DNA of 64,000 nt, from assembly GCA_902494195.1 (NCBI GenBank), contig CABUSH010000010.1, positions 9,523 through 73,522 on the forward strand, read 5' to 3'. The DNA comes from an uncultured Collinsella sp. Its GTDB lineage: Bacteria > Actinomycetota > Coriobacteriia > Coriobacteriales > Coriobacteriaceae. Position numbers and translations under genes: made by a program. Positions 48,779-50,003 of this stretch are shown piece by piece. The notes below the pieces were generated by a model. That model made no database searches and was not told the origin of the DNA. It worked only from the letters and a program-made list of their open reading frames with translations. Numbering within the stretch: the stretch's first letter is position 1; every line of letters begins with the position of its first letter.

Positions 48779-48963
48779 GAAAATCCAATCTGAAGCAAGT
48801 ACAGCTTCCTTAGTATGCCGCAGGAAGTGACGCCGCGACACTATTCAACAAAACTATCGGACATTTCGGCATGCGATAAGAGCCATAACCTTCGCAGAAT
48901 TACTTCCCGTACAAAACGTCTCCGGAATGCAATCTTTGTCGTAGTGAAAAACCGAATCCCCAG

Positions 48964-49461
48964 TTATTTCACGTAAGTAATGTCCTGTTTTGGCGCCGAC
49001 CGGGAAATAGCATAACGATGATTCCCGCGATCTTGATAAACAGGGACGAAAGAATGGTATTTTCCGCTCGTCTTAATCTTGTAAATCTCATCCACGCTAT
49101 ACGGAAGATTGGGGAAATCAGCCCTTGAGATCAGCACGAAATAATTCGAGGAATACAGTACATGATGAGCAAACTCATCAGAATGGATCTCTTTTAAGCC
49201 CTCATCGACAAATACAATCGAGTCATGAACGGACGAAAGCTGGTTTCGCCAATCATAATCGGTCAAAGCGACACAGGGACAATCACATTGCAAGGAAACA
49301 CCCGACTGCTCGCCCGTTCGCATGTAGTCTGCGACCATGTCAAACAGTGTCGTCTTACCCGTGCCGCTATCGCCACGCACAATAGTGATGTTCCGCTTGA
49401 TGGTAAATGTGTACTTAGTTCCCCTACGGCGGGAAATCTTAACGAGATGCGAACCGTTCAT
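48964..49461 (-). CDS. Minimal P-loop NTPase (165 aa), family not recognised
   Basis: Walker A GDSGTGKTT (DNA 49348-49374) and Walker B SIVFVDEG. No signature motif or other domain. Lies 9 nt downstream of the preceding ORF. Confidence 0.6.
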   Translation of the reverse strand: MNGSHLVKISRRRGTKYTFTIKRNITIVRGDSGTGKTTLFDMVADYMRTGEQSGVSLQCDCPCVALTDYDWRNQLSSVHDSIVFVDEGLKEIHSDEFAHHVLYSSNYFVLISRADFPNLPYSVDEIYKIKTSGKYHSFVPVYQDRGNHRYAISRSAPKQDITYVK

Positions 49462-49470
49462 AAGCAGTAC

Positions 49471-49908
49471 CTACAGATACGGAATCGACTCGTGAATCAA
49501 TTCGGCCATGTTGTGAACAATTCGGCCGCTATTCACGACTTTAATTTTAAAATCCTCGCGACCAAAGTCCATCACATGATAGAGATTCACAACGAGCTTG
49601 CGGCCTTTCGCCATGTCGAGAATCCACTTGGCACAGTTGTCACCACAGGTAGAAGCGTTAAAAATATGCTTACGATCAAATCTCATAAGCAGCAGCGTTT
49701 TCACGCCACCAGAAAGCTGGAGTGGGGAGATGGATCCAAGCACAGGGCTTTCGATGACGTTTTCGGAGACAACAACCGATCGATCGACATCTTTAATTAT
49801 CGAGACTGCATAGGGATCCGTAATCCAAGAAGACCGGTAAGAGTTTTTGAAATATGTCGCTGTGTTGTAAATCGCTTCTGGCATATCGCCAAAGTAGACG
49901 CTTAACAC
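49471..49908 (-). CDS. Small protein with ABC-signature-like LSGG motif (DUF4869-like by recollection)
   Basis: (V)LSVYFGDMPEAIYNT...SPLQLSGGVKTLLLM...NLYH. The GTG at 49908 lies 5 nt after GGGAG; the track ORF starts at a TTG at 49920. Confidence 0.5.
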   Translation of the reverse strand: MLSVYFGDMPEAIYNTATYFKNSYRSSWITDPYAVSIIKDVDRSVVVSENVIESPVLGSISPLQLSGGVKTLLLMRFDRKHIFNASTCGDNCAKWILDMAKGRKLVVNLYHVMDFGREDFKIKVVNSGRIVHNMAELIHESIPYL

Positions 49909-49957
49909 ATCCACTCCCAATCATATTGTCTTTATGGTCAACGTAATCATAACGAAA

Positions 49958-49985
49958 GGGGCCACCAGATAAACGGTGGCCCCTA
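49958..49985 (-). terminator. Hairpin terminator downstream of rfbA
   Basis: AGGGGCCACC-N8-GGTGGCCCCT, a perfect 10-bp stem 19 nt after the rfbA stop. On the minus strand it is followed by TTCGTTATG, a weak U-tract. Confidence 0.5.
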
Positions 49986-50003
49986 AAAGAAAACAAGCTG
50001 GCG

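Follow-up and report, generated by a model that had tools for sequence, protein, structure and literature searches.

A DUF4869 gene and a truncated P-loop ATPase gene in the dTDP-rhamnose locus of a Collinsella sp. as a candidate two-gene conflict module

We analysed a stretch of 64,000 nt from contig CABUSH010000010.1 (assembly GCA_902494195.1) of an uncultured Collinsella sp., below called the window, in which two minus-strand open reading frames (ORFs), A and B, lie 9 nt apart between the dTDP-rhamnose genes rfbA (rmlA) and rfbB (rmlB). This arrangement had been reported in a preliminary description of the DNA and could be confirmed. ORF A encodes a DUF4869 protein, and ORF B encodes the N-terminal part of a P-loop ATPase whose intact form has 324 aa. 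In our reading the locus carries a conflict module of two genes, self-contained but broken in this copy, which would most likely serve phage defence or abortive infection; we put the probability of this reading at roughly one half. The reading draws on the pair being a compositionally foreign, strictly coupled unit, on the acid-rich domain attached to the ATPase, and on defence-island or mobile-element neighbours and recurrent decay. We hold it to be nearly certain that the two genes are obligate partners and that the window carries a truncated B.

The two proteins and the deletion in ORF B

The preliminary description had presented ORF B as a stripped-down P-loop NTPase with no nuclease attached. 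Both features turned out to be artefacts of a 367-nt deletion, the intact protein having 324 aa and a catalytic-looking C-terminal domain, tentatively predicted to be Toprim-like. Homologues run beyond the ORF B stop ('...KQDFxxLLTEDSKSGxQFF...VFVIADGAAFG...CLPESFEWLLL...'), and a 324-aa ORF occupies the position of ORF B in ~70 of 80 Collinsella loci, this sample being the best 80 of >586 matched genome loci, all 80 of them from Collinsella. At the junction, which was placed by blastn against the full-length locus L010 (the second aligned segment showing 93.9% identity), 369 nt of the full-length alleles are missing and 2 nt are left, a net loss of 367 nt. Codons ~161-283, encoding the conserved acidic core of the domain at the C-terminus, are thereby lost, and the last five residues of ORF B (ITYVK) and its stop codon arise from the resulting frameshift. 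The 3' end of the gene persists as an out-of-frame remnant that still encodes '...SNSAKVMALIACRNVR' in the old frame. In keeping with this the hidden Markov model of the B family covers just profile positions 1-160 in the window, and the window ORF B gives sub-threshold P-loop matches alone with Pfam and PADLOC.

The same junction recurs in loci L001, L002, L039, L055 and L069, with the unmutated form in L064, and the exact truncated protein (WP_187362399.1) is recorded on at least 1000 contigs; it is thus a common allele and no assembly error. As the window allele is without the effector domain, A and an ATPase stump remain, and this copy of the module is most likely non-functional. WP_187362399.1 is named 'Fis family transcriptional regulator' in RefSeq, and gene B of the plasmid pRUMAL02 is annotated 'translation initiation factor 2'. 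Both names look like propagating misnomers, since B is a P-loop ATPase without a Pfam match.

ORF A matches Pfam PF16163 (DUF4869) with E=6.6e-57 (191.3 bits vs a cutoff of 28.9) over profile positions 1-126 of 128, which bears out the tentative family assignment of the preliminary description, and its exact sequence is recorded as WP_349100083.1. The GTG at 49908 is the likelier start, as GGGAG stands 5' of it; the alternative is a TTG at 49920. The family is large (6,144 clusters at 90% identity with E<=1e-3) and has no assigned function, and a literature search finds no mention of DUF4869 or PF16163.

In the sequence of ORF A a functional Walker A (GxxxxGK[ST]) and a functional Walker B (hhhhDE) are both absent; 'GDMPEAIYNT', with no lysine, occupies the P-loop position after the first strand. 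The layout expected of ABC proteins, in which an LSGGQ-type signature stands ~18-24 residues ahead of the Walker B strand and a D-loop and an H-loop come after it, is found, with LSGG at residues 65-68, FNAS at 83-86, CGDN at 88-91 and NLYH at 108-111. Across 86 unique family members, 44-81% identical to the reference member of the alignment, LSGG is invariant, as is N84 in place of the Walker B Asp, and S66, G67, G68, K70, T71, L72, N84, C88, G89, N91, C92 and A93 are at least 98% conserved. The AF2 model (pLDDT 90.5) runs from strand 2-6 through the GDMPEAIYNT loop and helices to a helix from LSGG, the strand FNAS, a helix and a strand ending NLYH, which fits the expected helix-strand-helix-strand order. 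All 50 Foldseek matches listed against the PDB are ABC ATPase domains, among them P-glycoprotein, PtuA of Septu, the SMC3 head, EcfA-A', TM287/288 and CFTR NBD1; they are weak (best E 9e-3, TM 0.32-0.47), and single-sequence and profile searches of PDB chains gave no sequence match. Because the P-loop lysine is missing and N-A-S stands in place of the Walker B D-E, we infer that ORF A encodes a catalytically dead mini ABC-type domain that retains the signature, D-loop and H-loop region.

It should be noted that both cysteines of the DUF4869 'CGDNC' are at least 98% conserved and that B of close relatives likewise has a CxxxC (C59, C63). A role of these cysteines in metal binding or redox chemistry is conceivable.

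A search with the 324-aa B protein returned 2,456 clusters, and a B profile search of 1.84 billion representatives returned 575 at E<=1e-30, these being 50% identity clusters, and 2,858 at E<=1e-3. The full-length-looking representatives have mostly 303-372 aa, and shorter fragments are listed too. An example of a full-length B is WP_070100749.1. Among 111 representatives, 27-59% identical, G35, K36, E87, R113, D168, E241 and E244 are invariant; E167, G172, D213, G214, A215, A216, G218, P240, S242, F243, W277, E278 and K298 are conserved in at least 90%, and D86 in 89%. The AF2 model of B (pLDDT 80.2) has two domains. The N-terminal one comprises, among other elements, a beta-hairpin and the strand and helix of the P-loop, after which come two strands, a short helix and the Walker B strand; strands 5-11, 16-21 and 25-29 precede the P-loop helix 36-53. 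Of the features of ABC ATPases it thereby shows the Walker A, the Walker B including the catalytic Glu, and the N-terminal beta-hairpin that precedes the P-loop strand. An Arg takes the position of the switch His, and 'LTDxDW' that of the signature. As the P-loop helix stands only ~30 residues from Walker B, a helical subdomain and a signature motif are both missing, and an above-threshold ABC profile match is likewise lacking with Pfam among the 111 diverse members. All Pfam matches in these members are sub-threshold, AAA_23, AAA_29 and ABC_tran competing with AAA_22, nSTAND3 and AAA_14.

The C-terminal domain of B is a four-fold beta-alpha unit in which strands 163-166, 186-189, 208-211 and 235-238 alternate with helices 170-179, 193-202 and 221-230. 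Its acidic residues stand at the ends of strand 1 (E167, D168), strand 3 (D213 in 'DGAAFG') and strand 4 (E241, E244). This layout matches a Toprim-type metal site, and from motifs and model we tentatively predict that the domain is Toprim-like.

The two proteins are degenerate in complementary ways: B keeps the invariant G35, K36 and E87 without a signature, and A keeps LSGG without Walker motifs. The simplest reading of this pattern is a heterodimer with a single composite site, and the earlier suggestion that one ABC-type site is divided between A and B in complementary halves is consistent with the motifs and with the weak ABC fold matches of A. In the mechanism that we propose, and for which we see about even odds, intact B would be a minimal ABC-type ATPase fused to a C-terminal Toprim-type nuclease-like domain, and A would be a dead mini ABC domain giving LSGG in trans. 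The two would associate head to tail in a heterodimer whose one composite ATP site is made of the Walker A and B of B and the LSGG of A. The nuclease domain might then be controlled by the binding or hydrolysis of ATP there, or by an invader that disturbs the site.

Pairing, decay and genomic context

From the B side 80 metagenome loci were fetched, and 72 of them had enough upstream DNA to be counted; the scan used a 7-sequence alignment, and the distant B members are 35-43% identical to Collinsella B in the loci measured. A lies directly upstream of B in 68/72 loci and directly downstream in 3/72, and is missing in 1/72, so that the families co-occur as an adjacent pair across phyla (71/72), as the preliminary description had asked. 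Sampling from the A side gave the same picture, with a 324/325-aa B adjoining A in every lineage sampled. Adjacency was also found wherever both genes were readable in Collinsella, in five metagenome lineages of uncertain taxonomy, in Agathobacter and on IMG/VR contigs. Across lineages the spacing is 2-70 nt and the frames vary. In 15/15 lineages the order of conservation is A, then the N-terminal domain of B, then its C-terminal domain, A being the slowest-evolving part.

The exceptions to pairing are an A that stands alone on L118 and an A split by IS21 on a Ruminococcus albus plasmid. On L118 (an IMG/VR contig, 131-577 and 2543-3748), the only clear solo A, there is no B within 3.5 kb downstream, and small membrane-like ORFs and an opposite-strand 401-aa ORF stand in its stead. 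Loci L120, L121 and L155 have the reversed order, in which B precedes A; in L120 and L121 ~24 nt lie between the two genes, and at 9036-9242 L121 carries a further fragment resembling A.

When all flanking ORFs were clustered, no third gene proved to be conserved. A 138-aa ORF after B in L003 was considered as a third component and rejected, as it is the rest of B beyond a TAA nonsense codon. Among the 150 best B representatives there is no A-B fusion, the longest having 372 aa vs ~470 aa expected, and none in which the match starts beyond residue 63. In the window ORFs A and B share one reading frame, with a TAG and three codons between them; a fusion by stop-codon read-through was rejected, the shared frame being specific to Collinsella. 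One 90%-identity cluster (that of protein P0241, with 10,884 members) mixes 145-aa DUF4869 and 324-aa B proteins. Fused or read-through gene calls may bridge A and B there, which is conceivable given that the two are in frame in Collinsella. Since this cluster mixes A and B, we rejected the use of the cluster sizes 10,884 vs 690 as allele frequencies.

Inactivation of the pair is recurrent, and comprises the window deletion, a TAA nonsense codon in TEDSxSG, IS21 in A and an extra C-terminal fragment of B. The nonsense codon is found in L003-L008 (e.g. L003 6001-6966), in frame at B codon 172 inside 'TEDSxSG' where a relative has Tyr, with the rest of B continuing in frame as the 138-aa ORF; it is a second, independent loss of the B C-terminal domain. 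This lineage is widely sampled, the protein being listed in 180 blocks of the collection. In L089-L093 (e.g. L089 9237-9653) another 138-aa ORF, 40% identical to the C-terminal half of B, lies ~260 nt downstream of an intact A-B and looks like the remnant of a second, decayed B copy; just upstream of A in these loci is a gene for a 362-aa AAA_22/AAA_16 ATPase. The IS21 case (L094) is on pRUMAL02 of Ruminococcus albus 7 (NC_014825.1 ~100.9-105.4 kb), where istA/istB split the DUF4869 gene.

The order rmlA-A-B-rmlB-rmlCD was found wherever flanks were readable in the 80 Collinsella loci, and likewise in a second lineage. The picture of a cassette wedged into the rfb genes was therefore abandoned, as was recent insertion, the arrangement being common to these loci. 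A third lineage has A-B-rmlA-rmlB-rmlCD. There (L110-L113, 114-4973) AbiU (PADLOC E=2.9e-161), a PDC-S31-like gene, a PDC-M03A-like gene and a 265-aa gene of no known kind stand directly upstream of A-B-rmlA, a defence island abutting rhamnose genes.

Further contexts are UbiB-A-B-DUF2304/GT2 and GT2/GtrA-A-B-YafQ, and one island with HipA/MqsA-like genes, a resolvase, a relaxase, AbiE or AAA_15/RloB, and a serine recombinase. Other neighbours are ParA, ParB and RepA_N elements, HEPN and AAA-ATPase_like/PDDEXK_9, and some other loci carry Bac_transf or CapD genes. In Agathobacter rectalis the neighbours are plain housekeeping genes (AzlCD, glycerate kinase), and in one lineage they are genes which we take, from their sequence alone, to be IleS and glycogen phosphorylase. 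The GC content of A-B lies 1.6 to 23 points under each 3-kb flank in six of six lineages, and 6-10 points under the whole fetched locus.

In the window 48842-50003 has 45.5% GC vs 67% for rfbA and rfbB. Of the earlier remark on low GC, noted as ~42%, it stands that the cassette is below the rfb genes, but not that low GC is special to it. The polysaccharide region at 44-64 kb has 42-47% GC throughout and a neighbouring glycosyltransferase gene 45.6%, vs ~61% for the remaining window, so the rfb genes are the high-GC outliers and the cassette is no unique low-GC wedge. This region (44000-64000, at least 20 kb) is a low-GC polysaccharide-synthesis region with glycosyltransferases including an 823-aa double GT2 (51074-53545), and the locus gives the impression of a mosaic assembled from horizontally acquired pieces. 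The terminator-like hairpin reported after rfbA, whose stop codon is 50004-50006, was found again and sets rfbA apart from the A-B cassette. The positions of QLSGG and of the Walker A motif had been given exactly, and IVFVDEG is present as described (Table 1).

Table 1. Features of the A-B locus and its flanks, in window positions.
Feature	Position	Strand	Details
ORF A, DUF4869	49471..49908	-	145 aa; GTG start 49908; TAG stop 49471-49473
ORF A signature QLSGG (LSGG = residues 65-68)	49705-49719	-	from translation
ORF A FNAS (residues 83-86), Walker B position	49651-49662	-	from translation
ORF A CGDNC (residues 88-92), D-loop position	49633-49647	-	from translation
ORF A NLYH (residues 108-111), H-loop	H111 = 49576-49578	-	from translation
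ORF B, truncated allele	48964..49461	-	165 aa; residues 1-160 = N-terminal ATPase domain of normally 324-aa family
ORF B Walker A GDSGTGKTT	49348-49374	-	from translation
ORF B Walker B IVFVDEG	49198-49218	-	from translation
Deletion junction	48979..48982	-	blastn of window vs full-length locus L010
Out-of-frame remnant of gene B 3' end (original codons ~284-324)	48854..48978	-	original TAG stop 48854-48856
Terminator-like hairpin	49957..49984	-	right after rfbA stop; 11-bp stem, 8 G-C pairs, loop 6, tail TTCGTTATGA
rfbA/rmlA, glucose-1-phosphate thymidylyltransferase	50004..50903	-	67.3% GC; PF00483 on orthologue in L001
rfbB/rmlB, dTDP-glucose 4,6-dehydratase	47759..48778	-	66.7% GC; ATG at 48778
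Fused rmlCD gene	46290-~47745	-	follows rfbB/rmlB

Known systems and other explanations

In OLD, Gabija and PARIS alike a Toprim nuclease is gated by an ABC ATPase (PMC7049728, PMC10568477, PMC11464382). In the OLD family the ABC ATPase is N-terminal and the Toprim domain C-terminal in one polypeptide (PMC7049728, PMC10568477), and PARIS is a two-gene module in which the ABC ATPase AriA controls the Toprim nuclease AriB (DUF4435) (PMC11464382). With the OLD nucleases (P2 Old; Class 1 TsOLD; Class 2 GajA; Class 3 retron-associated) B shares the layout of an ATPase followed by an acidic alpha/beta domain, as well as defence settings. It also gives weak fold matches (E 2e-3 to 6e-2) to GajA (8x5i_B) and to viral 'ATP-dependent endonuclease' proteins. 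The proteins so named are from giant viruses and are the best BFVD matches of B, though non-significant; the name is one that UniProt uses for OLD-family proteins. OLD proteins have roughly 500-600 aa, whereas B is shorter (324 aa), with an ATPase of ~150 aa that is without the inserted dimerisation domain or a signature motif. B further differs in having D-x-A in place of DxD and in needing a separate DUF4869 partner, which to our knowledge no OLD class has. By profile B is not an OLD protein, as there is no above-threshold match to OLD, AAA_15, AAA_21 or Toprim and no room for the dimerisation insert; of the residues expected of OLD, E167/D168 and D213 are present, and DxD is reduced to D-G-A.

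The pair shares the two-gene plan of PARIS, and A would be analogous in function to its regulatory ABC-fold partner. In PARIS, however, ATPase and nuclease are separate proteins, whereas in A-B they would be fused, the separate protein being an inactive ABC-like domain. The PADLOC model of AriA matches just residues 18-50 of B (E=0.003-0.008), that of AriB does not match B, and neither matches A.

Among the fold matches of ORF A, PtuA chains of Septu (8ee4, 8eea, 8sux) rank near the top (probability up to 0.92, TM 0.47), and PtuA and LmuB give sub-threshold matches on the N-terminus of B. PtuA is a complete ABC ATPase of ~400 aa which forms a homo-oligomer and pairs with an HNH nuclease; ORF A, in contrast, is entirely without Walker A and Walker B. 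Asymmetric ABC heterodimers (TM287/288, CFTR NBD1/2, EcfA-A') share the principle of one dead and one working composite site, and their structures 4q4j, 4hlu and 2bbs are among the fold matches of ORF A. In these each subunit keeps its own P-loop and signature, whereas the division between A and B would be complete; they are also transporters, and A and B are tiny, soluble and non-transporter proteins. We know of no described case of subunits split into a signature-only and a Walker-only one.

The B family has no Pfam match above threshold, no PADLOC system and no PHROGs match. PADLOC gave matches in the P-loop region alone, the best being LmuB with E=2.5e-5 over residues 9-43, and single-sequence and profile searches against all PDB chains gave P-loop noise alone. 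The A-B module appears to be undescribed as a family, as DUF4869 is absent from the literature search and PADLOC has no model for it. This agrees with the preliminary statement that no described function was known for the pair, B being absent from Pfam and the pair from PADLOC and PHROGs.

Several points weigh against a conflict module of the proposed kind. The ABC class of the B ATPase is unproven, given the sub-threshold matches to AAA_22, nSTAND3 and AAA_14. The Toprim assignment has motif spacing and secondary structure as its sole basis, and B has an invariant Ala where the canonical DxD has its second Asp. The C-terminal domain is without a Pfam or PADLOC match at E<=10 and a PHROGs match at E<=1. 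No PADLOC 2.0 or PHROGs match was found for the module, A having zero PADLOC matches at E<=1, and Foldseek with the whole B model against the PDB and BFVD gave none at E<=0.001. An hhalign comparison of the A and B profiles showed no similarity, the A profile being of low diversity (Neff 1.5). Many contexts consist of housekeeping or polysaccharide genes without marks of mobile elements, and the pair is rare on plasmids (3/72,556 records), on phages (5/50,697) and in IMG/VR (6 loci); carriage of the module by phages or plasmids was rejected on this rarity. A defence role is proposed from context as the most likely one.

The alternative that survives best, which we nevertheless consider unlikely, is a pure addiction module resembling a toxin-antitoxin pair. 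B would be a toxic nuclease-ATPase and A its inhibitor, together stabilising the variable polysaccharide locus or a mobile element, with no role against phages. Two small co-directional genes, the smaller usually first and the gaps 2-70 nt, would suit such a pair, as would neighbours that are often toxin-antitoxin genes (HipA/MqsA-like, YafQ, HEPN) and a putative toxin domain that is repeatedly lost while A is retained. Most antitoxins are labile, however, and the slow evolution of A in all 15 lineages is the opposite. The invariant LSGG, a nucleotide-site motif, points to a catalytic partner and not a simple plug, and the gene order is reversed in three loci. It should be noted that this explanation overlaps with the conflict module, as many abortive-infection systems behave like toxin-antitoxin pairs.

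The recurrent rml linkage, with rmlA-A-B-rmlB-rmlCD in two lineages and A-B-rmlA-rmlB-rmlCD in a third, could speak for a cell-envelope or housekeeping role tied to dTDP-rhamnose or surface polysaccharide, e.g. as an ATP-dependent regulator or quality-control factor of the rml/polysaccharide operon. So could the GT2/DUF2304, GtrA-type glycosyltransferase, Bac_transf or CapD neighbours elsewhere and the position kept in the Collinsella loci with readable flanks. We find such a role very unlikely. Polysaccharide genes are missing near A-B in Agathobacter, in the lineage with IleS and glycogen phosphorylase and in the ParA/ParB/RepA_N elements; the pair is compositionally foreign to rml (45% vs 67% GC) and has its own upstream terminator-like hairpin; and loss-of-function alleles are common alongside intact rml genes. 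The polysaccharide loci are variable low-GC islands and may be permissive landing sites.

Less probable again, to the point of being improbable, is an accessory of DNA repair or recombination comparable to RecF plus RecR, whose Toprim is non-catalytic, in which the pair would be an ATP-gated DNA clamp and no nuclease. An ABC-like ATPase is here combined with a Toprim-like domain, DxD is reduced to D-x-A as in a non-catalytic Toprim, and MutS and Rad50 are among the weak fold matches of B. Against it, E167, D168, E241 and E244 are invariant or nearly so, suggesting catalysis, and the patchy distribution, foreign GC, defence-island neighbours and frequent pseudogenisation are atypical of repair genes.

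The idea that a single ordinary ABC ATPase gene was disrupted to give A and B, the case named beforehand as refuting and suggested by the shared frame with TAG and 9 nt between the Collinsella genes and by the mixed 90%-identity cluster, is effectively refuted by the varying spacing and frame elsewhere, the inverted order in three loci, the lack of a ~470-aa fusion in the 150 best representatives, an order of signature then Walker A unlike that of an ABC gene, the confident folding of each protein alone and the disruption in the window of B only, at its 3' end.

Implications for the family and for Collinsella

We regard it as possible, with the odds somewhat against it, that DUF4869 and its 324-aa partner are an unrecognised class of OLD-like immune module, in which the ABC cycle is wholly split between two polypeptides, and which is widespread in human-gut Coriobacteriia and Clostridia. 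Equally tentative is our suggestion that the split module, a Walker-only subunit fused to a nuclease and a pseudo-ATPase with LSGG in trans, is a minimal single-site ABC switch without described precedent.

For the window itself the analysis means that the cassette has long been part of the rml locus and that its larger gene is broken. Both families are common in abundant gut bacteria (Collinsella, Agathobacter, Ruminococcus), and as intact and truncated alleles both occur in Collinsella, the genus offers a natural experiment in what the module costs and what it brings. If the conflict-module reading is true, it would provide a function for DUF4869, with its at least 6,144 clusters at 90% identity, and for a partner family without a Pfam model. 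A compact module of ~470 aa would then join the immune systems in which a Toprim nuclease is coupled with an ABC ATPase, and it would be the simplest natural test case for one ABC signature motif in trans controlling ATP hydrolysis.

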